Positions 9,414 through 28,653 of a stretch of 28,653 nt of DNA are shown here, piece by piece. Source of the DNA: Candidatus Heimdallarchaeota archaeon (GTDB taxonomy: Archaea; Asgardarchaeota; Heimdallarchaeia; Heimdallarchaeales; Heimdallarchaeaceae); contig JAEOSZ010000106.1 of assembly GCA_016840095.1 (NCBI GenBank), positions 1 through 28,653 of the forward strand, read 5' to 3'. The notes beneath the pieces were generated by a model that had not been told where the DNA came from, searched no databases, and worked only from the letters and a program-made list of their open reading frames with translations. Every line of letters starts with the position of its first letter. Position 1 is the stretch's first letter. The position numbers and the translations under genes are program-made.

Positions 9414-10016
9414 ATGGAAGGAACAACAAAAACTCCCTTAGAAGAATTCATCGACCTTTATGCCCAGATAAAAGACAAATTCGCAGAACTTCCAGATGTA
9501 TTAACAAAGCTTTCAAACTATTCTGACGACATTGTTAAAGCAAACAATGATCTAAAATCAGAGAATGATGATCTTAAATCCAAACTCAAAGAAATTGAAG
9601 ATAAATTCACCAAACTCAAAACAGAATATGAAACAAAAGATCAATCTATTGAAGAAGCATTGAAAGATGCAAATAAATACAAAATCCAACTTGAAAGCGT
9701 AGAAGAGCAAATGAAAGGATTACGTGAAATGTATGAAGAAATGGCACAAGAGAGAGCTGAAGAGATAGATATTCAAGATCTTCTTGCCATTTATACCGCA
9801 CTTTTCGAAAAAGTCTTTGCTGGAAATCCCCACACTAAAATTCTCTTATTATTCCAAGGTGTAGACAAGGAAGAATGGACAAGAGATGAAATTGTAAAAA
9901 CTACTGGTTTTTCCCCAGCAGCTATTATTCGAGCTCTTCATGATTTGCGAAACAGTGAATTAGTCGAAACAGATGATTCTGCAACTAAAGCTAAATTAAT
10001 TAAAAAATTAGGTTGA
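9414..10016 (+). CDS. Coiled-coil protein with C-terminal winged helix-turn-helix
   Basis: Heptad-rich E/K/L segment at residues ~20-115; C-terminal TKILLLFQ...TRDEIVKTTGFSPAAIIRALHDLRNSELVE wHTH pattern. Confidence 0.75.
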   Translation: MEGTTKTPLEEFIDLYAQIKDKFAELPDVLTKLSNYSDDIVKANNDLKSENDDLKSKLKEIEDKFTKLKTEYETKDQSIEEALKDANKYKIQLESVEEQMKGLREMYEEMAQERAEEIDIQDLLAIYTALFEKVFAGNPHTKILLLFQGVDKEEWTRDEIVKTTGFSPAAIIRALHDLRNSELVETDDSATKAKLIKKLG

Positions 10017-10049: not shown

Positions 10050-10988
10050 TTAGTCCTTTTCTTTACTATTTTCTTTGTCAGATTTTTTCTCATTTTCTAT
10101 TTCTCTTTGTTTAACAGCTGCCTTAACATATACTAAATCTGCTAAATAGGCTTTCAAAGGTACGACAATTAAACCCATAACAACAGCTATTCCACCTATG
10201 ACAGAGAGTGTCCATCCTATTGCTCCACCTAATAGGAAAACAGGAGCAAACATCAATGCAAGAAGAGCGAAAACTAATATTCCTAAGGAGTAATTTATTA
10301 GAACTGTGCTTAGTTTTACTGGTCTCTTTATCTCAAATGCCCTATACAACCATCTAGAACTAATAAAATATAAACCAAACATTGGAGCAGAGAAAACAAA
10401 CACACTTCCAATGATACCAAGAAGTACTGCAAAAGTTTCTGACTTGAAAGTAGATAAACCAATAGCAATGATTCCTATTCCTAGAGCAATAAAAATCAAG
10501 GCAATTCCAAAAGCTTCTATTGTAGCTGCAAGAGCATTAGTACTGGGAAGAGATCCTTCTAGAAATCCTATAAACTTCACTTTTTTGTACTTATACTCTA
10601 ACATCTCAGGTTCAAATGATGGTTCAACTTCTGTAAACCTCACTGATTTTTGTGCAGGGGTAGGTGGTTTTGGTTGAATTTGCATAGCAGGTGGTTGAGC
10701 TGGCATTGGAGGCCAAAGAATAAGTTTAGGTTGGTCATCATCTTGACCTTCTGTCTTTTGAATAACTGGTTGAAATACACCAGTTCTTCCTGGAGCTTGA
10801 GTAGGAGTTCTTTCAGGAACCTCAATATCCTTGATGTCATGTCCACATTCTGCGCAGAAAAGATCATCAGCTTTGTTCAAAGTACTACATTCAGGACACT
10901 TTTTCAAAGAATTTCCACAAAATTTGCAGAATTTTGAGGTTGAGCGTATATTTCTCAAACAAATAGGACATTCACTATTTACACTCAT
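10050..10988 (-). CDS. Zinc-ribbon membrane protein (N-terminal double zinc ribbon, Pro-rich linker, about 4 TM)
   Basis: CPIC, FCKFCG, CPEC, FCAECG; PPMPAQPPAMQIQPKPPTP linker; four hydrophobic segments. Start 10988 or 10997. Confidence 0.8.
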   Translation of the reverse strand: MSVNSECPICLRNIRSTSKFCKFCGNSLKKCPECSTLNKADDLFCAECGHDIKDIEVPERTPTQAPGRTGVFQPVIQKTEGQDDDQPKLILWPPMPAQPPAMQIQPKPPTPAQKSVRFTEVEPSFEPEMLEYKYKKVKFIGFLEGSLPSTNALAATIEAFGIALIFIALGIGIIAIGLSTFKSETFAVLLGIIGSVFVFSAPMFGLYFISSRWLYRAFEIKRPVKLSTVLINYSLGILVFALLALMFAPVFLLGGAIGWTLSVIGGIAVVMGLIVVPLKAYLADLVYVKAAVKQREIENEKKSDKENSKEKD

Positions 10989-11059
10989 AAATTTCAAGAA
11001 TAACTTGTGATGAATCTTTATATCGGTATCTATTCATTGAAAAAAAGTTGAGTAGAAAA

Positions 11060-12235
11060 CTACTCTGTTTCTGTAATAACTTCAGTGTCTGTTTCTGCTT
11101 CAGTCTCTTGTTCTGGTTCTGGGATTATGTTTTCAGCTTCGAGTAATTCATCTCTGGTATCTTTTCCTTTTTCTAATACTTCCCAGAATCTATCTACATA
11201 ATCTGGATGAATACCCGTCAGTACACCTCTGATTGTCAGTATTGGTTCTTCAATTGAGTTTAAGGAAACTTTCACTTCTCCTCTTTCGAATCTTTTTACT
11301 ATTTTTCTTGTTTCAAATGTAGATTGAAAAGTGGTAGGCATAGTAATTGCTAGATATCCCAATTTAGCTCTTGTAACATCTGTTGTCAAACTGGAACTCT
11401 CATCCAATTCACCAAAGAACAGATCAGAAAATCTTGTGTTTTGTGCTTTTTCAAGTGATTCAAATTCTCTATCCAAAGATATTATGATTCCTAATCCTCT
11501 AGCTTCTTTTGAAAAAGTTTTGAAGAAATCATTCAAGTCTGCATTAAATTCTTCATGAGTACTTTCTTGTAGAGCAGAAAGTATAGTAGTTGTTAGAATA
11601 TCAGCAAGTAAATCATTACTCCTCTCAATTACTTCTTCTATTGTTTCCCCTTCAGAAACTGCTAACCGTTTTTCATTGTCAAATAGAATAACCGGACAAT
11701 GTGGACCTACAGTATCAAATCCTAAGTAATATAAAGCTCTAGAAGCACTGAATTGAACAAGAGATGAATCATCTTTCTTTGGTAAAACAAAGATAACAGT
11801 TGGAGGTTCGCCAGTAATATCTGCTAGGATTCTACTAGTGATTATTGTTCCTGCACTTCCAGTTCCTCCACCACTTCCAATAATGAGATGAAGAGCTAAT
11901 TCATCTTCTCTTTTATGTTCTCCTTTTCTAGAAAAAACAACTCTATCCAATTTATTTCTTAGTCTGTTTTCTTTTGCTTTGAGCTGTTTGTAAGCTTTTT
12001 CGAAATTTAGGTCAGAAGTAACAAAATTTTGATCTCCAAACCAGAAAGTATCAGAGAACTTGGTTAGTTTTGGCTCAAAATCATCAAAGAGATTGATAGC
12101 TAGAGATTTGACTGTTATGTTACTTTCATTTAGGTGTTGAATTAGTTTTTCACCGATTTCACAACCTGCATTACCAACACCTATTACTGCTATAGATATT
12201 TTCTTTTTGAATAATTTTCTTTTTAGCCACGACAT
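11060..12235 (-). CDS. Divergent tubulin/FtsZ-superfamily GTPase (CetZ/TubZ-like)
   Basis: T1 IAVIGVGNAG, T4 signature GSGGGTGSAG, T5 FVLP, T6 LFDNE, T7-like NADLNDF; C-terminal domain ending I..RGVLTG. Confidence 0.88.
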   Translation of the reverse strand: MSWLKRKLFKKKISIAVIGVGNAGCEIGEKLIQHLNESNITVKSLAINLFDDFEPKLTKFSDTFWFGDQNFVTSDLNFEKAYKQLKAKENRLRNKLDRVVFSRKGEHKREDELALHLIIGSGGGTGSAGTIITSRILADITGEPPTVIFVLPKKDDSSLVQFSASRALYYLGFDTVGPHCPVILFDNEKRLAVSEGETIEEVIERSNDLLADILTTTILSALQESTHEEFNADLNDFFKTFSKEARGLGIIISLDREFESLEKAQNTRFSDLFFGELDESSSLTTDVTRAKLGYLAITMPTTFQSTFETRKIVKRFERGEVKVSLNSIEEPILTIRGVLTGIHPDYVDRFWEVLEKGKDTRDELLEAENIIPEPEQETEAETDTEVITETE

Positions 12236-13573
12236 TTAGGAACCTCCTACAGATCTGATTATTTTGAGAATATTGACAACCCAGATTGCAATTACCATTA
12301 TTGTTCTGAAAACTTTCTGTGATGAAATTGGAAAGATTCTCATGTTAGCAATAAATTCTCTTAATTGAAGCATTGTCACTTGTTCTCTCTTTACTTCTTC
12401 ATCATATTTCTCCCCAAACTCTACAACATTAGCATAAATGTAATTATCTAATTCCATCAAAGCTTTGATTTTGAATTTCTTTGCCTTGTTGCTGAAAGCC
12501 CATAATGGAAGAATAACATAGAATACCATTAAAATTGCTACTAAGGCTGAAATTGTAACAACTAAGATAGTTGCAGGTTGCCCAACATGAATGAACAAGA
12601 ATTCGAAATTGAGCGTTGGCATACCTGGAGGAGGTAGAGAATAGATTAACTGGTTTACATTTCCCATTACCATTGCTATTATTATGATCAAAGTTGAAAT
12701 TATTCCAGCAGTTGGAATGTTTTCTAATTGACTGATAGATCGTCCTTTTGACCATCTGTCTCCTAAAGACCAGATAAGATCATAATTCTCTTTTATTAGT
12801 AGAGTACCATATTCATTTCTATAGATATTCATCTGCTCTTTAATTGGTTTTAGAACCTTGGCATAAATTCTTGTATTATATAGCATGAAATACATTGCTA
12901 CATAGAAAATATAATGGAGAAAAGGACCGAATATACAAGCTAGTACACCGAAGAATGCAGCAGCTGGATATCCATTGAATGCAATTCTGAGCATAGGTAT
13001 TTGAACTCCTATACCAGTTGCAAGAGATGCTAGGATAACTAATGGATTTAGCGGTAAATGTCGATCATAATGCTTTGCATAATACTCTCTTACTGGTTTC
13101 TCAATCCACTCAACTCTTTTGGCAATTGTTAAACCAAGAAATCCATCATGTGTATATTTCAAATAGAATAATGATAATAGAATCGCTATAAGTAATGGTG
13201 TTCCAACATTGAATAGAATATCTATAAACCTCCACCATGGAGCAGCAGAAGGTAATAATTCTTTATAAGGAATATGAACAAAAAGTAGTGTTGGAATAAA
13301 CAATACTCCTATGTAAATCCACAGTTTGAGAAATTCCTTCCACCCTAAGGAGAGAATTGTATTTAACTTAAGTCTGAATAAAGCAATCGGAACAAGATAA
13401 AATTTCTTGAAGGGATTCATCAAAGCGTCTAAATATACTGGATTTTCAACAATTGCAGCTGTTTTAGGATATCTCTTGTAGTGATCGAATAGTAGATTTT
13501 CAAATTCAAAAGTTGGTACATCAATATCTTCAGGAACAGCTTTTTTTGATTTAAACTCAGGTTCTGATTCCAT
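12236..13573 (-). CDS. Polytopic membrane protein of unknown function (about 7-8 TM)
   Basis: 445-aa ORF with repeated hydrophobic segments; its TAA directly abuts the ATG of the tubulin/FtsZ-like gene. Confidence 0.8.
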   Translation of the reverse strand: MESEPEFKSKKAVPEDIDVPTFEFENLLFDHYKRYPKTAAIVENPVYLDALMNPFKKFYLVPIALFRLKLNTILSLGWKEFLKLWIYIGVLFIPTLLFVHIPYKELLPSAAPWWRFIDILFNVGTPLLIAILLSLFYLKYTHDGFLGLTIAKRVEWIEKPVREYYAKHYDRHLPLNPLVILASLATGIGVQIPMLRIAFNGYPAAAFFGVLACIFGPFLHYIFYVAMYFMLYNTRIYAKVLKPIKEQMNIYRNEYGTLLIKENYDLIWSLGDRWSKGRSISQLENIPTAGIISTLIIIIAMVMGNVNQLIYSLPPPGMPTLNFEFLFIHVGQPATILVVTISALVAILMVFYVILPLWAFSNKAKKFKIKALMELDNYIYANVVEFGEKYDEEVKREQVTMLQLREFIANMRIFPISSQKVFRTIMVIAIWVVNILKIIRSVGGS

Positions 13574-15088: not shown

Positions 15089-15327
15089 ATCATATCATCT
15101 GTTTGTGATTTTCTAATTTTTTTAATTCAGCGTCTGCATTTGTTAATTGTAGACAAGAACCCTCTCTACATACTCTCCAACTGCTCAGTTCCAACCGTAA
15201 GATATATAATGTTCCTATATTCACTCAACGTAATATTAGTCTCTAACGATACTAGTACTATTAGTCATTAACTTTAAATATCTATGAGAGACGAAACAAT
15301 AGAAAGTGAAAAAAAAGAGGATTCACA

Positions 15328-18300
15328 ATGGATAAAAGATTTCGAACATTATTAGGCGCACTGATTCTTACGCTAGCTATTAGTTCAGCATTAGTGATTG
15401 GAATTATTTTGCCTATAAATTCAATTAATATTATTAACGGAGTAAACACTAATTTAGATCATTTTGGGAAACTAACTGTAGATGATATTATTCCCAATAC
15501 TGGTATTGGTTCATATTCTGATTGGATGCATACTGCTCCAAGCACAAATGAATCAAGGTTCTATGATCAAGCTTACTTCGAATTCTTTAATATAACTGAC
15601 AGATCAGGTTACATAGATTATGGCAATCCGCTTGCTTATTTCTATATACAAGGAGAGCTTATTTTCGATATAACGATAAACAAAACAGTTCTAGAATATA
15701 ATGCTGAAGATGATTATGTCGTTTTCACAACTCGAAGACAATATACTCTTAATGAATCAGTTTCTACATTGACAGGAGACGAAAAAGTCATCAATGTAAA
15801 TTATATGTGGCCATATTATATTGAATACTTTGGAAACGGAACTGAATATGGTTTTCAATCTTATGTTGCCACTTTTCTCCTAAAAACCGAATCAGACCTT
15901 CTTAATACTTCTTACACATATCCTGAAATCGCACATGCCATTCTCAATAGAGGATATGCAGAAAGTGAAGGTATACTAGATCTGGGGACATATTTTCCTC
16001 ATAATTGGATAAGTGTTAGACCAGCATTCCAAGATTTAGACTTTGATCAATCAACAAGCTACAATATGCTCTATAATGCTACATATGATGGAAAAGATTA
16101 TTCAATTCTAACTGGAGATGCAGGTGCTCCTAAATTCTTCTTGGATTTAGTAAGAGGACTAGATTATGGTGAGCCTGATGATTTAACAGTTGATGTTACT
16201 CAGTTATTAGCTGATGTTTATGGTATTGATACTCCAACTGAAATAGAATCAGCTAAATCGTTTGCTGCTTATCTTAATTATCTACTTGGGAGACCTTCGT
16301 TAGACTGGTTATATGATAATAAAATTTCTTATATTTGTGAAAGAACTACAATGGAATGGGTTTCTGGTGTTCCAGATCCACTTCTCGACGATAGAGTATT
16401 TCCGCTTCTTGTTAACGAAACACTATCTTCATCAAGTATTGATTGGGATCAAGATGTTTATTACGTTGAAAGATTAGGACTGGTTGATCCCATAATAACA
16501 GGGTCTCTAACAGGAATAGCCAATATTCCATTTTATGAGTATTCTAAATCTATGGATGTAATAATGGAAAATGATATGGCTTATGTCCTAGAAGGTGGAA
16601 CTGACATTAAAGTTGTTAATACAACAGATCCGCTGTTTAGAGCTGTTGGTCAATTTGGTGATTATGATGGTGTAATCAATGATTATGCCGTAATAGATGG
16701 TATTGCTTACGCTGTTGAAGGAACTAAAGGATTAGAAATTCTCAACGTTACAAATCCACATACTATTGATGAAATAGATCAATGGAATCTTGGTAATAAC
16801 GACATGAGAGGAGTTTCAGCTGTAAGATATATGATTGGAGGAACTCCAATGGATGCCTTAGTTATAGCCAATGGTGAAATAGGTGTAAAGATTGCAACCT
16901 TAACAGCTGATACTAAAGAAGTCAGCACTATCTATACTTTTGTTAACTCTTCAGGAACAGCCATAGCAGTAGATGCTAGAGTAGATATCAATAACAGAGA
17001 TGCTTTTGTTGCTTTAGGAACAGATGGTATAGATGTTATGGATTTAGGAGATTATGCAGCACCGGATTTAGATCTTGTTTGGCATTATGATTCAGCAAAT
17101 TTCTCAAATCTTAAAGATGTAAGAGATGTAAAAATTGATGGATTATACTTATACGTTTTAGATGCGATAGAAGGTATGTTAATCTTTAGAATTCAATCAA
17201 ATAAAACACTTACAGAGATGGGACATTTAGAATATGCTCCAGGTGATGAACCTTTCAATAATATCTATATTGACGGTTTTAATGCTTACTTGACTCAAGG
17301 TGAAGACGGTTTTATGATGGTTGATATTACTGATAAAAACAATCCTACAGAGGATGAAAGATTCAATAGTACTAGTCATCTAGGAACAGCATACGGAATC
17401 TATGCTGACGGAGATGATATCTTTTTAGCTGATTACGAACAAGGTCTTGTTCATTTAGATTATAGCATTATTTCTGGAGATTTTGATTTTGTTGAAAAAG
17501 ATGAGATTCATACATTTCTAGAATGTTGGCAAAGAGATAGTAAAGTTCAATTTGACTTCTGGGATTTAGGTCCTGATGCAGCACAAGCAGAAGTTGATCC
17601 ATTTAACTATACCTACGATTCATTTTCTGTTACTCCTTATACTGAGAGAGGATTTAGGTTACAATGGAATGACTTCTTCCTCAAACCATTTGCCTACAGT
17701 TCAACAGATACTGCTCTATGGTTTGACGAGACTGTGGATGTATATCTAGCTCAAGCAGGAGTACCATATCTTCAAATGGATCAATATGATCTTTATTGGA
17801 TGCATGCTGCAAACTTTATCAACACAAGTTTCATACAAGTTGGAAAATGGAATAAAATGTATGATTTAGACTTAACTCTTCAAGATGTATTCATAACCTA
17901 TTCCTTACCAGGACAAGTAGGAAGAGATCCATTTCATATGCAATACATGATGGTTGAACCAATTACTGGGGTTGTTGTGGATAGACGAGATAGGATTCAA
18001 TATAATACAATTGTGGCTAACTTTATTGAAGCATTTGAGTTCCTAAACAGAACTAAATATACGGGTCCAATCCAATCTCTTCCTGGAATACATAAATATC
18101 CAACATGGCATCAAACATTCCCAGCAGTACCTGGTGGAATGTCAACTATGTTCTGGCAAGAAGATATCCATCTAGGCACTGGTGTTTTATACGTAGATAT
18201 GAATACAGATTTTCTTGATGTGATTGAAGGAGCAGATACATCTCGTACAATAGGTGCTTTTGGTTCAATGTTCTTAGTTACAATAGGTTTTGTTATAACT

Positions 18301-18354
18301 TCTGTGGTTCTCCATAGAACTAAACAAAAAACTGAAGTAATTCCTGACAACTAA
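15328..18354 (+). CDS. Two-TM cell-surface glycoprotein with CD36/SR-B/LIMP-2-like ectodomain and inserted LVIVD beta-propeller
   Basis: N- and C-terminal TM helices; CD36-like motifs W...P..., YFEFFNITD, RTTMEWVSGVPDPLL, H.QY..VEPITG....R.RIQYN and MFWQE; seven LVIVD-type repeats; many NxS/T sequons; SD-like GAGG at 15317-15320. Confidence 0.78.
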   Translation: MDKRFRTLLGALILTLAISSALVIGIILPINSINIINGVNTNLDHFGKLTVDDIIPNTGIGSYSDWMHTAPSTNESRFYDQAYFEFFNITDRSGYIDYGNPLAYFYIQGELIFDITINKTVLEYNAEDDYVVFTTRRQYTLNESVSTLTGDEKVINVNYMWPYYIEYFGNGTEYGFQSYVATFLLKTESDLLNTSYTYPEIAHAILNRGYAESEGILDLGTYFPHNWISVRPAFQDLDFDQSTSYNMLYNATYDGKDYSILTGDAGAPKFFLDLVRGLDYGEPDDLTVDVTQLLADVYGIDTPTEIESAKSFAAYLNYLLGRPSLDWLYDNKISYICERTTMEWVSGVPDPLLDDRVFPLLVNETLSSSSIDWDQDVYYVERLGLVDPIITGSLTGIANIPFYEYSKSMDVIMENDMAYVLEGGTDIKVVNTTDPLFRAVGQFGDYDGVINDYAVIDGIAYAVEGTKGLEILNVTNPHTIDEIDQWNLGNNDMRGVSAVRYMIGGTPMDALVIANGEIGVKIATLTADTKEVSTIYTFVNSSGTAIAVDARVDINNRDAFVALGTDGIDVMDLGDYAAPDLDLVWHYDSANFSNLKDVRDVKIDGLYLYVLDAIEGMLIFRIQSNKTLTEMGHLEYAPGDEPFNNIYIDGFNAYLTQGEDGFMMVDITDKNNPTEDERFNSTSHLGTAYGIYADGDDIFLADYEQGLVHLDYSIISGDFDFVEKDEIHTFLECWQRDSKVQFDFWDLGPDAAQAEVDPFNYTYDSFSVTPYTERGFRLQWNDFFLKPFAYSSTDTALWFDETVDVYLAQAGVPYLQMDQYDLYWMHAANFINTSFIQVGKWNKMYDLDLTLQDVFITYSLPGQVGRDPFHMQYMMVEPITGVVVDRRDRIQYNTIVANFIEAFEFLNRTKYTGPIQSLPGIHKYPTWHQTFPAVPGGMSTMFWQEDIHLGTGVLYVDMNTDFLDVIEGADTSRTIGAFGSMFLVTIGFVITSVVLHRTKQKTEVIPDN
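16549..17470 (+). repeat. Seven LVIVD-type beta-propeller blades (protein-level repeat)
   Basis: Examples: DVIMENDMAYVLEGGTDIKVVNTTDP; DYAVIDGIAYAVEGTKGLEILNVTNP; DVKIDGLYLYVLDAIEGMLIFRI; NIYIDGFNAYLTQGEDGFMMVDITDKNNP; GIYADGDDIFLADYEQGLVHLD. Boundaries approximate. Confidence 0.8.
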
Positions 18355-18725: not shown

Positions 18726-21700
18726 GTGTCTGAAACTTCAGTTACTAAAAAGATGTCTGCAGCTGCTTTTTTCAATGAAAACAGAGCAATAGCTGGCTTT
18801 GGAAATTCCATGCGTGCTGTATTTACAAGCATACGCGAATTAGTTGAAAATGGATTAGATGCTGCAGAAAAAAGAGGGATAAGTCCCAATATCACAGTTG
18901 AATTGAGAAAACTATCAAGTAGAGAAATAAATGAGCTTCTTGATGTTAAACAACATAAGAAGCTAGAAAAGCATTTAGATTTCTTACAATTGACATGTAA
19001 GGATAATGGGATTGGTGTTCCAGGAAACTTAATCGCTGAGCTCTTTGGTAGGGTTCTTACAGGTACAAAATATGGAGTTATTCAGACACGAGGAAGATTT
19101 GGATTAGGTGCAAAAATGTGCTTATTATATTCCATGTCTTCTGTTGATCTTCCAGCTAAAATCAGATCACGGTACTTCATGGATGACATTACACATGAAA
19201 TGCATTTGATGATAAATCTTGAGAAAAATGAACCAATTATCATGGAACAAAGAGAGTATCTCCCAGGTGATGAAAGTTATCTCGAGGAACCAGGTACAGA
19301 GATTTCTATAACTTTTACAGGAGCTTGGAATCTTGCTAAGAACAGCGTTCGAGAATATTTCAGACAATTAGCTATAATTACTCCTTATTCTTCTTTTGAT
19401 GTTAAAGTTCCAGGTGATAAGGAAGGGGAATTTGAAGAGTTTATTTTTGAGAGTGTTGTAGATGACATGCCTCCTCCTCCTCAAGTTGTTAAGATTCATC
19501 CCTATGGGTGTGATATCACCCAGTTCAAAGCGGAATTAGGTTCAAACAATGCCAAATCACTCAAACAATTCCTGGCAAATCAATTTATGGGAGTAACAGA
19601 AGAAATTGCTGAAGATTTTTTCCAATTGTTAGAAATAGATCCTAATAAACATCCAAAAGAACTTGATTCTAGAGAGATACGCAGAATTGTCCATGAAGGA
19701 TTTGTTAAAGCATACCAAGAAGCAAAAGATGTCAAACGAAAGCGTGATAGAGTATTCCAGTTTGATCCTCCAAAAGGAACAGCTCTTTCTCCATTAGGTG
19801 CAGGAAGACTGAAAAGAGGACTTGAAAAGGAATTAGTTCCTAAATTTACAGAAGCTATTTCAAGACCACCAAAAGCATATTCAGGTCATCCATTTGTTGT
19901 AGAAGCAGCGATAGGTTATGGTGGTGGAGTAACTGAAGCTTCTCAGCAAAGAGGAACTAATGTTCAAGATAATAAAATCATCTACAGATATGCAAATAGA
20001 ATACCTCTGATATTTGGTGCAGGGAATGATGTTATTTCCCATGTTGTTTCTTCAATCAGATGGAATGAGTATGGTTTAACAAGGCAATCTGATCCTCTAG
20101 CAATAACAGTTTCTGTTGTAAGTACAAAAATACCTTTTCCAGAAACAAGTAAAGAGTATATATCAATAGTTCCAGAGATTGAAGAAGAAATAAGACTTGC
20201 TCTACAACAATTGGGTAGAAGACTGAAAACATTTCTAAGTAGAGCAAAAAGACGGCGTCGAGAACATGCTAGATTATCACGGTTTGTTAAATCTGCTCCT
20301 GGTGTTGTTGAAAATCTTTCTCAAATAATTGAGGATGAAGGTATAGAAATTGCAGATTTCAGATTTGAGAAAAACAGAATAGCCTCTGCTTTGGCACATG
20401 GTGCTACTAAAAAAGCTAAGTTATTCATGCCTTTAGGTAAGAGACTCTTTGGACTTAACATTTGGTGTCCAGTATCTACTCAAAACATATTGAAAAGTAA
20501 AAACATCTTGACAGTGTCTGACTTTCTACTAACTCCTACTAAAGAGTTAACAACAATTATGTCACTTGATGAGGAAGCAGTATATAACATCAAATTAAGA
20601 ACAATCTATGAGTTAGATAGAGAAGGATTAAGTCCTCAGTTTGATGCAAAAATCTTTGTTTCTAGAGCTGTTGAGAGAAGGTTTGATAAGTCATCAATTT
20701 CATTAAAAGATGCTTTAAATCGAAGATGGATACAAAATAGTTATCATTATTTAGCCACTGAATTTGAGAAACTAAAGAATGTTACAGGGCTTTTAGAGAA
20801 ACTATTTGAAAACAAAAAGGATGAACTGATTAATCAACTTCTACTTTTGAATAGAAAAGATGATGGTTCAAAGAGCTATCCAAAATCAAAACATCCAACA
20901 GATACCTTAACTGCAAAAGGACAGCTGAAAATTGGTCATCTTTTCCCGTCATTTAAAGTCTTCAAAGCTCAATCAAATGAGATTCTTGCTGCTGATTTAA
21001 CAGTGGAAGAATTTATTTATCAAACATTACTTCCCGAAAAAATCAACTATCAACAAGAAATTACTTCAATACTAATTGATTACTTGAAAGAAGTTTTCAA
21101 TAAAATGATTGCCAAATTTCCAACTTTCTTAACAACCAACATAACAAAAATGACACCAGATTGGACAGATGGTTATACAAAAAATGCTTTCCACAGAAGA
21201 AAAATAAAAACGATTGAGAATTTCATCAATACTTCAACTGATGATCTTGTCCAAATCAAAGAAATGGAGCGAATAATATATTCATTGTTCCTTGAAAAAT
21301 TAGTTAAAGAATCTCCATCAATCAATCTAACAGCTTTTGAATTTATTGAAAGTGATACTCTTAAAAGTGCTGAAAAATCAGCAATCAATTTGTTAGCAAC
21401 TAAAGGTATCAAAACCTTAGCTCAATTACTATTTTATAGTGCTGAGCAAATTTATGATAAGAAACTGGAAAGCTTAGCAGAGTTATTAATGAATGAAACA
21501 AAATATACTATTTTATCCTCTCTGCAAGCAGCTGAAAAGGGATTAAACTCCAGTCATATTAAGATTATACCTAGTAGTATAGAAACTGAACTACACAGGA
21601 ATCAAATATTTAATTCATCAACTTTCCTTTCATACTCTTCCCCAGGTTTGAGAAAGATGGGTATGAAGAAAAGGGATGTTGATCAGATTAAAAAAGTACT

Positions 21701-24700
21701 CGGTACTCCATTACCTAACTGGTTGGGAGAACAAGAGATGTTCAGGGAATGTGGAATAATTGTATTAGAAGAGTTGTTCTCAAACTCACCTGATTCCTAT
21801 GCTATTTCTGCTGAGAAAAAGAAGAAATATTCTGAATTATCGAATTTTCTAAGAACACCAATTATATTCTCTTTCCCACAGCTTAGACGAGCTTCCTATT
21901 TATTAAAAGAAGTTGGAATAAATTGTATTGGAAGATTTCTCATCTGGTCTAATGAAGAATTAGCAGATATTTTAGGATACAAAGTCGAAGAAATCAAAAA
22001 AATGAAAGATAGTGTGTCTTTAGATGAAATCAACAAGAATAGAAAAGAACTAAGTAAACCATTAGCACAGCTGAAGACTCTCTTCCCCCGATTGAATGAT
22101 TACTTTGGAGGGACTAATGAAACACTACAAGATTTGTTCTATCTATATCCATCAGAGAAAGTTAATTTATCGCTAGGATTATGGAAGAAAATTAAGAATC
22201 TAAGTACTTTATCTCAACTTGAAATCATAGAACTTGCCCAACTATTTTCCAAGAAACCAAATCAGTTAGAAGATGCTAAAGATGCTCTTCTAAGATTGAA
22301 TGCGAGGAATATCATTACTATTAAACAATTTCTAGATCTTATACCAGAAATTTTAGAGTCTGAATTGTCATCTGCTGCTCATAGAAAAGTTATGATTGAA
22401 CTCTATTACATGATAAAGAATCGAGACTTTGAAGAAACAAATGAGTTCAGAAAACAAGTTTTATTGTTTAGTGAGTATGACGAGTTTGAACGAACCTTAA
22501 GCTTACCTATTTCAAGAATAGGGAATCTTTCTCTTCAAGAATATGAAGATTTACGTACTAAAGGAATAATAGCTGTTCACCAGTTATTTGAGTATTCTTC
22601 AAAGGAAATTGAAAAGATTCTCAACAAAACTGAAGAAGAAATCAATCAGATATTTACAGGATTCGAGATTGAACAAAAAGGTACTAGTTTCTTTGAAAGA
22701 GCAGAAAGGAATAGATTGAAGTCCTTAATATCATTCGAATATGAAGATTCTGAACGTTTTTCAGCTCTTGAAATTGAATCACTTGTTCTCGCAGGATATA
22801 ACTCTGTTGACAAAATATTCTTCCTATCTCATCCACTTACATTTTCTGCCTCAATTGTTCATTGGAATGTAATTGATAAATTTAGAAAACTACTACGATC
22901 ACCTCTTACTCTAGTAACTTGGGATAAAATTGTCAAAAAGAAAGTAATAGACGAGGAATCTGGTGAAGAAAAAGAAATCAAAGAAACAAAACTCTCTTCA
23001 CTTACAACTGAACAACTAAATGTACTTAGAGCTAATGGTATCTCTCGAATTATTGATTTACTCATTGTTAAAAAGGAAAAACTTGAAGGAATTTTAGGGA
23101 TAACTTCATCAGAAGCACTTCTCCTGCAAAGAAATCTAAGGATAAGTGATACCGGAACTGATCTTGCTGAACTTGATATATTCAAACCTCATATAGTTGA
23201 TAAACTTGAGGAATACAATATAGTAACAATTGAGGATCTATATTTCTCGACTTCTAAACGTGAGTGGAGAATTGCTGAACTACCCTGGAATATAATTGAA
23301 GCATTCAAACAAGTTCTGAATTTACCCTTGAAATACATCTCTGATATGCTAGATAAAGAATTGATTGAAACTTTGAAGAAAGTAGATATAACTACGCTAT
23401 TAGGATTTATGCTAATCTCTCCTGAGAATCTGATGGAAAAAACTGGAATTCCTGATGAGAGATTTGAAAATATTAAAAGAGGTCTTGCTTTAGCAGATAT
23501 TTTGGGAACATTCACACTTCCAAGTTATTATCTTCCTGCTATATCTTTTGAAAAGACAGAGATTTTGAGAGAAAATGAGATATTTACTATTGCTGATTTT
23601 ATCCTTACATCAACTCAGAAACTTACTAAATTACTAGAAATCCCTGCAAACGATATAAGTTCAGTGAAGAATTCCTTAAACGCTCAGAGTATCCAGGAAG
23701 CGTATGAGGATAAAGGTATTTTTGCATCAGAAACAAAGTTATTTGATAGACTAGAACAACGACAATTGAGTCGAGATTCTATAATTCAATTCGAGAGATT
23801 TCAAACTCTTCAGGAAATTTATTATGTTATTGAAGAAGAATTTTACGCACTTAATCCAGATTTATGGTCAAAGGTTTCAGCTGTTAAGAAAGTATTAGAA
23901 CTACCATTAAGAATCTTCACAGAAATATCAGAATATTCACTAGAGGTTTGGGAACAAAATAACATTAAGTATGTACATCAACTGCTCTTCTTACCTGATG
24001 AGGAAATAAAAGATCCTGTTCTTTACAGATCAATATCAACCTACTCTTCAAAAATGCTTGAGATGAGAGCATTTCATTATTTTGCAAAACTACCTTCATC
24101 TGTATATAATTCATCATTCTTCAGTAATATTGTTCAGAACTTCGAAGAAAAGACTCTTTCAGATGTTGTTACAGATACCAAAGTCTTAGATCATCTACTT
24201 TCAAAGGATGGTCAATACCTTAATGAAAATTATAACCTCACACTTATCCGTGCTCTCTTAGAGCTACCTGTAAGAATAACTCCATTTTTCAACAGAATAA
24301 AGAAAATAAGAAGAGAAGATTACAAGAATACCAAAATAGGTGATGTTTTTGATATAGATTTAGTGGAACATTCTGCTTTAGCTCCATTCTACAATAAACT
24401 ACAAGAAGTAGATTCATTCAATAACCTAATCATTGATTTAGCAGTACCTATTTCATCAATGGGCCTTCCAAGGGAGTTGGCATTGAAGCTTAGTAAATCA
24501 TCTATCAATACACTAATTGATTTCTTCTCTACACCTATTCAGACAATTTCTGAAATCACTGGATTACCACAAAGGTATATCAGAGAAATACAAGGAAACC
24601 TTGATTATTCACTGATACAATCCTTCAAGAAAGCACAAACACATCCAATTGTTGCTTCTGTTCTGATTACAGAGAAACAGATTGAATCATTAAAGAAGAG

Positions 24701-27700
24701 AGGAATCACAGATATTGAATCTCTCTACTATTCAGCTGAAACACAAAACATATCCTCTATTCTTTCCGTTGAAAATTATGCTAAGGTGAAAGAAATTCTA
24801 TCAGGATCAATAAGATTCATTGGTTTCTTAGCATCTGACGAGATAAAAAGACTAGAATTTTACAATATTAATTCTATTATTGATTTAGCTTTATTAGACA
24901 AGAAAGAACTGTTTCATATTACTCAAAATCCAATTTACAAAGAATTCCATGCATTAGATATACTTTCATTAGATGAAGTAGCTGAGAAAAGAGCAGAAAC
25001 AGCTTTATCACTTAATTTACTTCCTTCTATAGAAGCAGACTATTTAGAAAAACTCAAGCAATTGGGAATAAACTCTATTCAAGATTTCAATTCTAGAATG
25101 TCTGAAATAAGGGATTCTCATCCTCATTTGGTTAAGCTAGATGTATTCCGAGATGTTCAGTTATATCTCTCTTCTGTAGCATTTCTAGGATTGAGTAATC
25201 AACAGGTCCAGAAGCTTGTATACTCTGGTGTAGGAGATATGTTATCTTTCATTACTGAGGATGTATCTACAATTGCAATCATCTTAGATATAGATGAAAG
25301 CGAAGTAAGGAAATATCTAGATAAAATTAATCCAGAAAACCTATTAACTGAACTGGACAAGAAGGGAGTAAAACTTACAGAGTTTCCTGTACTTTCGAAA
25401 TCAACAGTAAACTACCTTTTGAAGTCTGATAAGCAATATGTTCAAGATGTTTATAGTCAGTACTATCAAGCTTTTACAATAGCTAATGTTTCTGATGAAG
25501 TTCTAAGAGATTTTCTAAACAGCTGTAATGTCTCTATTTATAGAATTAAAGAACTATCTCCAGAATCGAAAATAAAATTATCACAGATGGGAATACTAAG
25601 AGTAATAGATTTCTTGTGTTCAAATGATACCGAGCTGAAGAAAGCTTTAGGTGGGAAAATAACCAAAGAAATAACTAGAATTAGAACAGGTAACTTCACA
25701 CTAATCAGAGGTACAGCATTGCTTCTTAATGAACCCATTCTTAATATTTTAAGAGATCTATATTTTGATCCTTCAAAGAAAACAGTTGAAGATCTATTTG
25801 GTTTTGTACCAGAACATCTTCTACAATTTACCGAAACAGAACGAATAGAGAAAATAACAAATATCTCTTTTGTTGAACAACTTGTTAGTTTCTTAAGTTT
25901 GAGTACTCTCTCACTTGCTTATTTTGATTTAGAAACCAAAGCTGTTCTCTGGAAAATTGGAATAAAACATGTAATTGAACTAATTTCAACAAATGTACAA
26001 ACAATAGAAGATGCCCCAAAAAGCGTTATTAGAGCTATTAAAGAGTTTCAACGTGGTTTCAACCTGAGTCTAAAAATGTCAGAAACCTTCTCTCCATATA
26101 TCGAACAGCAGTTAAGTTTACCAAAAGATATTCAAAGTAAATTCAAGAATTATGGTTTAACCACTGCTTTATTCTTATTTGACTTTATGCATCATCCTTT
26201 GTTTGAATTAACAAACAAAGAAGAAAATCTACTTCAGAATGTTACTTCAAACTTGTTCAAACCCATTACTTGGCTGTATGAATATTCTGATTTCAAAATA
26301 GAAAGTATGTCGCTACTAGGATCCAAAGATGCGAATAACATTATCACAGCTTTGCTATTGTTAGCAGATGATTCAAAAACAAGTGAGACCAGGAATTTCT
26401 CAGATCAGTTCTTTAGGAAATTCATTGAAACTATCAATAAAAATATTCTCAAGATCAAACCTACTGAATGGTCGTTGAAACTTACAGATTTAAGTCTAAT
26501 AAAAGATCAAAAAATATTAAGAAAATTGAAATCTGCAAAGATTCAGTATCTAGATGAATTACTTGCTTTGGACAGCACAATTATTGAGGATCAAGCTATA
26601 TATGAAGAAATGCGACCAACTCTCTTCTCATTAAAGAATTTCAGCGTTGCTTCAATTGATGGACTATCAATATCCAATGTTCAGATGTTAAAAAGCAAGG
26701 GTGTGAGAAATGTATTTCAATTCCTTCAGATACCTGAAATCCATCTTTCAAAATACATGAACATTAGTACTGAAAAAGTCAAGCAAATCAAAGTTAAGGT
26801 AGATCTAGAGGTTTTAGAAGCAAATGCTAAGTTAGTTGGCTTAGATATTCAACTAATTGGAAAACTTTCTGATAAGATTAAAAAAGTGTTAAAGGATCAT
26901 GGGTGTGTTTCCTTAACCCAAGCTGCTCATCTTCAAATTGATGAGTTACCTCTAACTGCTGAAGAAAAACAAAGTGTTAGAGAACTAGTTTCAATTTTGC
27001 ATACTCCTATAACCTTAATTGGTAAGGTTTTGAAATTAAGCAGAAAGAATATCGACTTATTAGTTCAGGAAAAAATATTTACTTACACAGATCTTCTAGA
27101 GATTCCTCAAGAAAAATGGCATTCAAGCCTCCAGAAACTTATTACAAACCAAAAATCAGATCCAACATATCTCATAAAACAATTATATGGCATTCAGAAG
27201 TTTGGTCTTTCTATAGACGAACTAAACTTTACAAAATCAGTAAAAGCATCATTACTTCAAGCAGGTTTAACGACTGTAGATCACCTCCTTTTTGTTCCAG
27301 ATTCATATATAACATCCAAAGGTAAGATGAAAACAGCTGAACTTCTTGAATTAAGAGATGGATTAGGAAAAAGTGTTAGTGTATTACCAAATCTGACTGA
27401 AGAAACAATAAAATATTGTTTAACAAACAATTTCCAGATTATTGAAGATTTACTGATTTACTTTAAGGATCATCCTAAGAAAATGCGTGAAGAAATTATA
27501 CCATCTCTCAGTACAATCAAAACACTTTCAGAAATTGGTTTCGAAGGATCTCTTTCTGAAACAGAACAAGATTTACAAAAACGAGGTTATTATTCCTACA
27601 CGTCCTTACTTACATCATCTGGTTTCAAGGACGATAGTGAGTTATTCTCCCAATATGCTCCATACTTGTTGGCAAACTTAAGATTCTTGGAAATAGACCC

Positions 27701-28653
27701 AACTATCTATAATCGATTGAAAAGGTCTGAAGTTTCAACTATATCCGATTTATTAATTGTATCACCAAAAACAGTTGCTACTAAATCAAAATTGAGTATA
27801 GCAAAGATTACCGATATAATTGACTCAATCAACTTTGAGAGTCTGAAAGAAAAAATAGATACAGAAAGTGTTTCTGTGGATAGAGAGTTCTTCCTATTAT
27901 CCCCTAGAGATAAGAATTTCTTGAAATCTATTGGAATTTATACAATCTCTGATTTAAATGAATATTCAACTTATTCTTGGTTGATTCCTGAAAGTAAATT
28001 GAACAAGATAAAAAACAAGATTGAAACAATCTTAGAAACACCAATACTTTACTATCCTGATATCAACAGCTTAACCTTCTTTGAAATTGACAAACAATAT
28101 TATAACAAAGGAATTTTCAGTATTCAAGATCTTCTTAATACAGTAGAAGAAACTGAAAATAAGAAAATAATAAGTTTTCTACAAAACTTTTCTTCCTTGG
28201 AAGAAAGAATTGATGAAGAATATCTTAAAGCATCTCAACTCTTCTCTGAAGCAGAATTGACATCACTCTCAAAATCCATTCCTAAAAAGAAGATAAAACA
28301 CTTAAATGATTATTTATCTGAATTATACAAGAATTATGAGAAGATTTCTGAACCAAATAAGAAAATCCTTAGAACACTGAAACATCCTCTATCTGCATTG
28401 TCTAAACTAACGTCAAACGATGTAAGGAATCTTAACAATAATGGTATGTTTCTCGTAGTAGATATTTTGATTAAATCAAAGACTTATTGGAACAACTTTT
28501 CTGCAAAGACAACAGGTTCCAAGGTTCTCTCTCTTCTACAAACACTGACATTGAGTAAATTAAAGAGTGAAATAAGAAAGCGTCCAAGCATCGCATCCTT
28601 AGGAGTATTTGATGAAGAGACAATCAAGGAAATAGGTGAGTATTATCAGACTA
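18726..28653 (+). CDS. top6B: Giant DNA topoisomerase VI subunit B with C-terminal tandem helix-hairpin-helix repeat array (3'-partial, >=3309 aa)
   Basis: Manual translation from GTG 18726 shows no stop to the window end. Top6B motifs: SAAAFFNENRAIAGF, RELVENGLDA (GHKL N-box), DNGIG, FGRVLTGTKY, QTRGRFGLG, PGTEI, AIITPY, KIHPYG (into H2TH), LSPLG, RPPKAYSGHPFVVEAAIGYGG, RYANRIPL, STKIPFPETSKEYI, EEIRLALQQLGRRLKTFL. Core ends near 20335 and is followed by repeats. Confidence 0.95.
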   Translation, partial: MSETSVTKKMSAAAFFNENRAIAGFGNSMRAVFTSIRELVENGLDAAEKRGISPNITVELRKLSSREINELLDVKQHKKLEKHLDFLQLTCKDNGIGVPGNLIAELFGRVLTGTKYGVIQTRGRFGLGAKMCLLYSMSSVDLPAKIRSRYFMDDITHEMHLMINLEKNEPIIMEQREYLPGDESYLEEPGTEISITFTGAWNLAKNSVREYFRQLAIITPYSSFDVKVPGDKEGEFEEFIFESVVDDMPPPPQVVKIHPYGCDITQFKAELGSNNAKSLKQFLANQFMGVTEEIAEDFFQLLEIDPNKHPKELDSREIRRIVHEGFVKAYQEAKDVKRKRDRVFQFDPPKGTALSPLGAGRLKRGLEKELVPKFTEAISRPPKAYSGHPFVVEAAIGYGGGVTEASQQRGTNVQDNKIIYRYANRIPLIFGAGNDVISHVVSSIRWNEYGLTRQSDPLAITVSVVSTKIPFPETSKEYISIVPEIEEEIRLALQQLGRRLKTFLSRAKRRRREHARLSRFVKSAPGVVENLSQIIEDEGIEIADFRFEKNRIASALAHGATKKAKLFMPLGKRLFGLNIWCPVSTQNILKSKNILTVSDFLLTPTKELTTIMSLDEEAVYNIKLRTIYELDREGLSPQFDAKIFVSRAVERRFDKSSISLKDALNRRWIQNSYHYLATEFEKLKNVTGLLEKLFENKKDELINQLLLLNRKDDGSKSYPKSKHPTDTLTAKGQLKIGHLFPSFKVFKAQSNEILAADLTVEEFIYQTLLPEKINYQQEITSILIDYLKEVFNKMIAKFPTFLTTNITKMTPDWTDGYTKNAFHRRKIKTIENFINTSTDDLVQIKEMERIIYSLFLEKLVKESPSINLTAFEFIESDTLKSAEKSAINLLATKGIKTLAQLLFYSAEQIYDKKLESLAELLMNETKYTILSSLQAAEKGLNSSHIKIIPSSIETELHRNQIFNSSTFLSYSSPGLRKMGMKKRDVDQIKKVLGTPLPNWLGEQEMFRECGIIVLEELFSNSPDSYAISAEKKKKYSELSNFLRTPIIFSFPQLRRASYLLKEVGINCIGRFLIWSNEELADILGYKVEEIKKMKDSVSLDEINKNRKELSKPLAQLKTLFPRLNDYFGGTNETLQDLFYLYPSEKVNLSLGLWKKIKNLSTLSQLEIIELAQLFSKKPNQLEDAKDALLRLNARNIITIKQFLDLIPEILESELSSAAHRKVMIELYYMIKNRDFEETNEFRKQVLLFSEYDEFERTLSLPISRIGNLSLQEYEDLRTKGIIAVHQLFEYSSKEIEKILNKTEEEINQIFTGFEIEQKGTSFFERAERNRLKSLISFEYEDSERFSALEIESLVLAGYNSVDKIFFLSHPLTFSASIVHWNVIDKFRKLLRSPLTLVTWDKIVKKKVIDEESGEEKEIKETKLSSLTTEQLNVLRANGISRIIDLLIVKKEKLEGILGITSSEALLLQRNLRISDTGTDLAELDIFKPHIVDKLEEYNIVTIEDLYFSTSKREWRIAELPWNIIEAFKQVLNLPLKYISDMLDKELIETLKKVDITTLLGFMLISPENLMEKTGIPDERFENIKRGLALADILGTFTLPSYYLPAISFEKTEILRENEIFTIADFILTSTQKLTKLLEIPANDISSVKNSLNAQSIQEAYEDKGIFASETKLFDRLEQRQLSRDSIIQFERFQTLQEIYYVIEEEFYALNPDLWSKVSAVKKVLELPLRIFTEISEYSLEVWEQNNIKYVHQLLFLPDEEIKDPVLYRSISTYSSKMLEMRAFHYFAKLPSSVYNSSFFSNIVQNFEEKTLSDVVTDTKVLDHLLSKDGQYLNENYNLTLIRALLELPVRITPFFNRIKKIRREDYKNTKIGDVFDIDLVEHSALAPFYNKLQEVDSFNNLIIDLAVPISSMGLPRELALKLSKSSINTLIDFFSTPIQTISEITGLPQRYIREIQGNLDYSLIQSFKKAQTHPIVASVLITEKQIESLKKRGITDIESLYYSAETQNISSILSVENYAKVKEILSGSIRFIGFLASDEIKRLEFYNINSIIDLALLDKKELFHITQNPIYKEFHALDILSLDEVAEKRAETALSLNLLPSIEADYLEKLKQLGINSIQDFNSRMSEIRDSHPHLVKLDVFRDVQLYLSSVAFLGLSNQQVQKLVYSGVGDMLSFITEDVSTIAIILDIDESEVRKYLDKINPENLLTELDKKGVKLTEFPVLSKSTVNYLLKSDKQYVQDVYSQYYQAFTIANVSDEVLRDFLNSCNVSIYRIKELSPESKIKLSQMGILRVIDFLCSNDTELKKALGGKITKEITRIRTGNFTLIRGTALLLNEPILNILRDLYFDPSKKTVEDLFGFVPEHLLQFTETERIEKITNISFVEQLVSFLSLSTLSLAYFDLETKAVLWKIGIKHVIELISTNVQTIEDAPKSVIRAIKEFQRGFNLSLKMSETFSPYIEQQLSLPKDIQSKFKNYGLTTALFLFDFMHHPLFELTNKEENLLQNVTSNLFKPITWLYEYSDFKIESMSLLGSKDANNIITALLLLADDSKTSETRNFSDQFFRKFIETINKNILKIKPTEWSLKLTDLSLIKDQKILRKLKSAKIQYLDELLALDSTIIEDQAIYEEMRPTLFSLKNFSVASIDGLSISNVQMLKSKGVRNVFQFLQIPEIHLSKYMNISTEKVKQIKVKVDLEVLEANAKLVGLDIQLIGKLSDKIKKVLKDHGCVSLTQAAHLQIDELPLTAEEKQSVRELVSILHTPITLIGKVLKLSRKNIDLLVQEKIFTYTDLLEIPQEKWHSSLQKLITNQKSDPTYLIKQLYGIQKFGLSIDELNFTKSVKASLLQAGLTTVDHLLFVPDSYITSKGKMKTAELLELRDGLGKSVSVLPNLTEETIKYCLTNNFQIIEDLLIYFKDHPKKMREEIIPSLSTIKTLSEIGFEGSLSETEQDLQKRGYYSYTSLLTSSGFKDDSELFSQYAPYLLANLRFLEIDPTIYNRLKRSEVSTISDLLIVSPKTVATKSKLSIAKITDIIDSINFESLKEKIDTESVSVDREFFLLSPRDKNFLKSIGIYTISDLNEYSTYSWLIPESKLNKIKNKIETILETPILYYPDINSLTFFEIDKQYYNKGIFSIQDLLNTVEETENKKIISFLQNFSSLEERIDEEYLKASQLFSEAELTSLSKSIPKKKIKHLNDYLSELYKNYEKISEPNKKILRTLKHPLSALSKLTSNDVRNLNNNGMFLVVDILIKSKTYWNNFSAKTTGSKVLSLLQTLTLSKLKSEIRKRPSIASLGVFDEETIKEIGEYYQT
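20430..28653 (+). repeat. About 40-44 degenerate ~63-aa HhH (RNAP alpha-CTD / RadA-N-like) protein repeats
   Basis: Recurrent P-h-x-x-h-x-x-h-S/T...L-x-x-x-G/N-I-x-T/S-h-x-D/E/Q-h-h, e.g. LKSKNILTVSDFLL (~20490), LATKGIKTLAQLLF (~21393), LKEVGINCIGRFLI (~21903), LRANGISRIIDLLI (~23025), LKKRGITDIESLYY (~24690), LKQLGINSIQDF (~25053), LLQAGLTTVDHLLF (~27252), LKSIGIYTISDL (~27921). Count is by eye and includes some weak units. Confidence 0.8.

Follow-up and report, generated by a model that had tools for sequence, protein, structure and literature searches.

The class B scavenger receptors (SR-Bs) CD36, SR-B1 and LIMP-2 are central to eukaryotic lipid uptake, phagocytic recognition and lysosomal sorting. 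We found no paper on CD36 in Asgard or other archaea. A broad evolutionary survey of the SR-B family, restricted to Eukarya, infers that the last eukaryotic common ancestor already had an SR-B (PMC10715195). A CD36-like barrel is also present in the DUF3068/PorA/LmcA proteins (PF11271), a superfamily reported to be exclusive to actinobacteria (PMC9678360); the apex of LmcA is a single helix, whereas that of LIMP-2 and CD36 is a three-helix bundle (PMC8972800). Here we examine P0001, a protein encoded on contig JAEOSZ010000106.1 of a Candidatus Heimdallarchaeota archaeon (assembly GCA_016840095.1), positions 1 to 28,653 of which form the window analyzed. Its gene is a single uninterrupted open reading frame (ORF; 15328..18354, plus strand; 1008 aa) that begins at the first start codon downstream of the preceding stop. 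The outer part of P0001 is, with high confidence, a very divergent homologue of CD36 and LIMP-2. We favor, at a probability of roughly 0.55, the interpretation that P0001 is a hairpin CD36-family protein with an inserted propeller that would capture ligands at the cell surface and transfer hydrophobic cargo, by analogy with its eukaryotic relatives.

P0001 has the hairpin organization of the CD36 family, with two end helices, short tails and one large ectodomain. A hydropathy scan identifies hydrophobic stretches at residues ~8–30 and ~975–995 and none elsewhere, leaving tails of 7 and 13 residues, both containing basic residues, and an ectodomain of ~930–940 residues; in hhalign comparisons the terminal helices of the P0001 family align with the terminal helices of canonical CD36. 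There are 17 N-x-S/T sequons, compared with 6.9 +/- 2.4 expected from 1000 composition-preserving shuffles, and 31 orthologues have 10–18 apiece, with 13 sequon columns present in at least 50% of them. The N88, N170 and N363 sequons occur in all 31 orthologues and N832 in 30. The original prediction, made from the nucleotide sequence, had described two terminal transmembrane helices, short tails and about 17 sequons, and these are borne out.

The Pfam CD36 profile (PF01130) matches P0001 with 27.1 bits (E-value 1.9e-6), a small margin over the cut-off of 26.5. The matching stretches are collinear, with residues 105–268 corresponding to profile positions 74–223 and residues ~870–900 to positions 367–396, and 16 of the 31 orthologues match at E<0.01. 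A six-frame search of the P0001 genome with PF01130 gives nothing at E<=0.001 and recovers the C-terminal stretch alone at E 0.007 (15.7 bits). NCBIfam has no match to P0001, and searching PDB sequences with family profiles (whole, N-terminal part and C-terminal part) returned noise only, without CD36 or LIMP-2; a Vps4 MIT-domain stretch in that search (E 0.08–0.3) was dismissed as noise.

Because the Pfam margin is thin, we sought intermediates by scanning 301 Asgard genomes with PF01130, and found strong canonical matches with E-values of 1e-28 to 1e-71. An alignment of ten of these canonical Asgard CD36 proteins (A4; 607–1367 aa), used as a profile, matches LIMP-2 at E 1.4e-72 and CD36 at 2e-68. 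When the P0001 family was aligned to A4 by hhalign, three segments matched in collinear order: residues 1–168 (E 1.4e-5), 308–395 (E 1.6e-5) and 764–997 (E 2.8e-7). Neither the apex (residues 150–340; E 0.42 against A4) nor residues 716–860 alone, compared with canonical CD36, gave a significant match, and global alignments at low mact mis-thread the middle of P0001 and were left unused. With the transmembrane helices cut from the query blocks and a 22-sequence canonical profile that includes five eukaryotic proteins as the target, blocks 1, 2 and 3 still match at E 5e-5, 1.1e-5 and 3.5e-5; in controls with target columns reversed or shuffled the values are 0.37 and 0.84 for block 1, 0.3 and 0.73 for block 2, and 0.54 and 0.86 for block 3. 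The five eukaryotic proteins by themselves (from Acanthamoeba, fish, frog, fly and one more) match the N-terminal part at E 1.8e-5 and the C-terminal part at 1.9e-4. Identity between P0001 and vertebrate class B scavenger receptors in the aligned blocks is ~15%.

The motifs that the profiles align are the same ones that had first suggested the relationship, and all are located where the original prediction had placed them: FFNITD begins at F86 (nucleotide 15583), RTTMEW at R339 (16342) and EPITG at E877 (17956), and MFWQE lies around W943. Within the P0001 family V-E-P-x-T-G, R-x-Q-x-N, W-x-E and R-T-x-x-E-W vary little or not at all.

A full-length AlphaFold model built from the 31-sequence alignment has a mean predicted local distance difference test score (pLDDT) of 74.9 and a predicted template modelling score of 0.71, with pLDDT mostly 80–90 in the N-terminal ectodomain. 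Foldseek searches with the full model recover only propellers, with E ~1e-9 to WD40, BamB and PON1 propellers, and the N-terminal 405 residues were therefore folded separately, giving a pLDDT of 65.7, below that of the same region in the full model. When this N-half model was searched against 48,161 chains, LIMP-2 and CD36 took the first two places, and LmcA is not among the matches listed; in Foldseek LIMP-2 and CD36 are likewise near the top of the list, but with E ~1. The nearest ESM-Atlas cluster to the N-half is archaeal (Thermoplasmatota) and 94% PF01130, and aligns over 297 residues spanning residues 18–403 with a template modelling score of 0.51 by query. An ESM-Atlas feature search with residues 40–405 gave no usable match. 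The proposal of a CD36/SR-BI/LIMP-2-like ectodomain is thus supported by PF01130, by three collinear blocks and by the structural match of the N-half, and no clearly better match to an unrelated surface-protein family emerged.

The structural alignment of the N-half stops at LIMP-2 residue 276 and CD36 residue 239, and the profile alignment puts the propeller after the T-G-x-D-D-I strand and before the G-T-D-G motif of the canonical proteins; the LVIVD propeller sits in the loop near those two residues. The model places 28 strands over residues 408–724, forming seven blades of four with pLDDT ~90, in good agreement with the ~408–715 proposed before any model was available. Pfam LVIVD (PF08309) matches 28 of the 31 family members, with a best E of 3.7e-13, although P0001 itself scores 13–16 bits, under the 20.2 cut-off; the assignment thus combines repeat matches in the family with a propeller fold in the model.

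The features of P0001 are listed in Table 1. The N-terminal helix extends over residues 3–46 in both the full-length and N-half models. Block 1 contains W...FFN-x-T-D and the first long strands and ends at V-x-N-x-N, and block 3 contains S-L-P-G, H...V-E-P-x-T-G, R-x-Q-x-N and F-W-Q-E. The apex region between blocks 1 and 2 is bigger than the vertebrate CD36 apex, has no sequence match, and falls inside the 297-residue structural alignment to the archaeal PF01130 cluster.

Table 1. Predicted features of P0001 and their positions in the window.
Feature	Position	Strand	Evidence
Whole gene: predicted CD36-like hairpin membrane glycoprotein	15328..18354	+	ORF; 37 full-length orthologues
N-terminal transmembrane helix, residues ~8–30, after 7-residue basic tail	15349..15417	+	Hydropathy
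CD36 block 1, residues 54–168	15487..15831	+	hhalign
Helical apex region, residues 169–307	15832..16248	+	Model helices at 161–330
CD36 block 2, residues 308–395: C-x-R-T-x-x-E-W...D-P-L-L and next strand	16249..16512	+	hhalign
Inserted seven-bladed LVIVD beta-propeller, residues 408–724	16549..17499	+	Model, Foldseek, Pfam LVIVD
CD36 block 3, residues 764–974	17617..18249	+	hhalign, Pfam CD36
C-terminal transmembrane helix, residues ~975–995, then 13-residue basic tail	18250..18312	+	Hydropathy; model helix 952–997

A word-indexed search found 37 relatives of P0001, each of ~1000 aa and 40–76% identical, all in Heimdall-group metagenome-assembled genomes; their source records, from Candidatus Heimdallarchaeota or Heimdallarchaeaceae, label them as 'hypothetical' or as 'LVIVD repeat-containing' proteins. 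A profile built on the N-terminal 405 residues (A2) and run over whole genomes from the order gave a single match in each of 27 of 30 further Heimdallarchaeaceae (family f1) genomes. All five genera are represented among these, as are two closed genomes. The profile matched nothing in the 16 genomes from sister families f2–f4. Against 1.84 billion representative proteins A2 gives eight matches, all of the P0001 family, with no propeller-less form, no eukaryotic protein and no DUF3068 protein among them. The gene lies in a conserved order (pyruvate kinase, an optional gene of 429–445 aa, the CD36-like gene and a giant Top6B gene) that is kept in relatives at 53% and 40% identity, and its G+C content (0.34–0.35) is the same as that of its flanks. 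From the single copy, the shared synteny and the flank-like G+C we conclude that the gene is vertically inherited within one Asgard family.

The scan of 301 genomes places the canonical proteins in the neighbors of this family. Strong PF01130 matches are present in P0001's order in 4 of 11 genomes of family f2, in the single f3 genome and in 2 of 3 f4 genomes, and outside the order in f7, which is of the same class, and in 12 of 68 f14 genomes. Heimdallarchaeaceae show only weak matches, which are to the propeller-bearing gene itself, and this gene is the sole CD36-family protein of the family. The two forms are thus complementary in distribution, with canonical CD36 in f2, f3 and f4 and the propeller form in f1. 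None of these canonical Asgard CD36 proteins contains a propeller; they have extra sequence at the apex (Pfam positions ~150–170), a different place from that of the propeller. Two of them, P0045 and P0046 (603–615 aa; L031:549-2369), have precomputed matches to both PF11271 and PF01130 and may link the actinobacterial and eukaryotic families at the sequence level. In family f14 one contig carries tandem paralogous canonical genes of 815 and 900 aa (L032, 864-3311 and 3825-6527), and several f14 genomes have more than one PF01130 match.

A tree was computed from 353 columns of the three homologous blocks and 31 rows (LG+C20 with posterior mean site frequencies, PMSF). The propeller family forms one clade (100/100) that attaches between the f3-type (Kariarchaeaceae-labelled) canonical proteins of its own order and all others, and the five eukaryotic sequences fall inside an unresolved group of canonical Asgard sequences. 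Because the stem of the propeller clade is long, we read the tree for two points only: that this family is strongly derived, and that it has no specific kinship to eukaryotes. Its position on a long branch marks it as a derived side lineage, so that it is not the closest form to eukaryotes. Considered with the complementary distribution, the tree is most simply explained by descent of the Heimdallarchaeaceae copy from a canonical Asgard CD36 gene, with later rebuilding. The tree is compatible with eukaryotes having inherited the CD36 family from Asgard ancestors or having donated it, and cannot decide between the two. P0001 had been put forward as a candidate eukaryotic signature protein; the CD36-family homology in that proposal stands, but the protein is a long-branch derivative confined to one family.

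In the interpretation we favor, both short tails would face the cytoplasm and the ectodomain of ~930 residues, probably N-glycosylated, would face outward, consisting of a CD36 domain that has evolved fast and bears a helical apex, together with the seven-bladed LVIVD propeller. By analogy with CD36, SR-B1, LIMP-2 and SNMP1, this ectodomain would stand on the cell surface, ligand would be captured by the apex, the propeller or both, and fatty acids or other lipids would reach the membrane by way of the barrel, either inside it or along it, such that the family may serve in lipid uptake or surface recognition. The lipid or hydrophobic-cargo step is tentative, and we hold it at somewhat less than even odds. 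The barrel-marking motifs remain near-invariant, which argues that the barrel is still selected for more than display.

Several observations weigh against or qualify this interpretation. The stem of the propeller clade is ~3.7 substitutions per site, an extreme divergence, and the eukaryotic proteins are much nearer to the canonical CD36 proteins found in other Asgard families than to P0001. Residues 759–829 have pLDDT <50, and the model of the barrel's C-terminal half is poor. There are no lipid-related genes in the neighborhood of the P0001 gene; elsewhere its genome encodes one acyl-CoA dehydrogenase and two AMP-binding enzymes, which are unspecific and lend no support to lipid uptake. The only conserved cysteine in the family is C337 (30 of 31 members), with C733 present in 16 of 31, and the metazoan CD36 disulfides are therefore absent. 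Conservation of three ectodomain disulfides is discussed under Metazoa (PMC10715195), and they may not define the CD36 family as a whole.

The long stem, the poorly modelled barrel and the lack of neighboring lipid genes are also what would be expected if the homology is the same and the job is another, with a CD36 scaffold that has lost lipid transfer and acts only to hold out the propeller on a rigid, glycosylated stalk. On this reading P0001 would serve in adhesion or recognition, and its targets could be partner cells, particles, glycans or the S-layer. No other part of P0001 is as well conserved or as well modelled as the propeller, and the Pfam description of PF08309 gives LVIVD propellers as typical of surface proteins in prokaryotes. 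However, a pure stalk is not expected to retain the barrel motifs, and the sister families retain canonical CD36 without any propeller. We regard this alternative as possible, although unlikely.

We also considered whether the resemblance to CD36 arises by chance or convergence and P0001 is an unrelated LVIVD-propeller surface protein. This is very improbable, given three independent blocks in the right order with the same two-helix topology and controls at noise, the first rank of LIMP-2 and CD36 in the structural search, an Atlas neighbor that is a PF01130 cluster, and a distribution that complements canonical CD36 within one order.

Still harder to sustain is membership in the actinobacterial DUF3068/PorA/LmcA family, outside CD36 proper, which has a CD36-like barrel and which the original prediction had named as the main alternative on account of a VEPxTG motif. 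PF11271 has no match at E<=10 to P0001 or to three parts of it, and none of the 31 family members matches at E<=0.01, whereas PF01130 does match; the apex of P0001 is modelled as multi-helix, unlike that of LmcA (PMC8972800), and the reported restriction of the superfamily to actinobacteria (PMC9678360) also argues against it. Recent transfer from a eukaryote, which the description of the CD36 family so far in eukaryotes (PMC10715195) might suggest, is scarcely credible for a single-copy gene that is syntenic in all five genera of Heimdallarchaeaceae, shares the G+C of its flanks and forms a monophyletic long branch that does not group with eukaryotes.

Each of four sediment metatranscriptome runs has one or two short contigs that fall within the ORF; its flanks have none. 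These contigs are 151–266 nt long, at least 99% identical, and lie at six places inside the ORF; since DNA carry-over is possible, they are at most a weak hint of transcription.

Directly 3' of the CD36-like gene is a giant ORF (18726-28652, plus strand; >3309 aa) that runs off the end of the window. A GHKL ATPase and a Topo VI-B transducer domain (E 3e-53) lie at its N-terminus, and RAD51D_N/HhH-like repeats occur in the thousands of residues after them; the relatives' versions are 4144–4196 aa and always directly downstream of the CD36-like gene. On the other side, a spacer of 240 bp (15089-15327) occupies the position where relatives hold the gene of 429–445 aa, between pyruvate kinase and the CD36-like gene (L001:6496-7785, L003:1606-2943). 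That gene has no Pfam family and was not found in the P0001 genome using a relative's sequence as query. Further upstream on the minus strand are a divergent tubulin/FtsZ-family protein (11060-12235; Pfam Tubulin E 1.3e-6, 29.2 bits, cut-off 33), a 445-aa protein with no Pfam family that abuts its stop (12236-13573), followed by a double-zinc-ribbon protein (10050-10997), and the trio is kept in two relatives' contigs (L001, L002). A 200-aa coiled-coil protein (9414-10016, plus strand) has weak sub-cut-off matches to COG6_N, Mod_r and other eukaryotic coiled-coil families, which are probably compositional.

The relationship of P0001's outer part to CD36 and LIMP-2 means that the receptor family extends beyond eukaryotes. 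The presence of CD36-family genes in several Asgard lineages extends the history of the family into archaea and adds a membrane-surface and lipid-handling entry to the eukaryote-like proteins of Asgard archaea. A larger scenario, which we think doubtful, is that CD36 (SR-B) was in Asgard archaea before eukaryotes and was inherited by the last eukaryotic common ancestor, with the Heimdallarchaeaceae copy then rebuilt as a propeller-bearing surface receptor. If so, the rebuilt receptor would be an archaeal forerunner or parallel of scavenger-receptor function, recognizing and taking up particles, partner-cell material or lipids. That P0001 is a derived and not an ancestral-looking copy tempers its individual weight. 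It nonetheless offers a compact experimental target for the role of such a receptor in a cell without endomembranes.

Compared with the vertebrate PF01130 proteins LIMP-2/SCARB2 (PDB 4F7B, 4Q4B, 4TW0), CD36 (5LGD) and SR-B1, P0001 differs in its 317-residue LVIVD propeller near LIMP-2 residue 276, in a larger apex of unrelated sequence, in the lack of conserved disulfides and in its archaeal host. LmcA (MSMEG_0317) is, like P0001, a prokaryotic envelope protein; it has an elongated CD36-like beta-barrel and is a proposed lipid binder (PMC8972800), but it has no propeller and is limited to actinobacteria, and the P0001 family is without a PF11271 match. The Thermoplasmatota PF01130 cluster, of ~870 aa, is archaeal and provides the nearest predicted structure to the P0001 N-half, but it belongs to another phylum and has no reported propeller. 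The canonical Asgard CD36 proteins (L024–L035, 607–1367 aa, among them the Kariarchaeaceae-type P0045 of L031, 607 aa) are from P0001's phylum and partly its order, and have the topology and the three conserved blocks in common with it; their matches have E-values of 1e-28 to 1e-71 for Pfam CD36 and of 1e-72 for LIMP-2, and the stem of ~3.7 substitutions per site sets the P0001 family apart from them.

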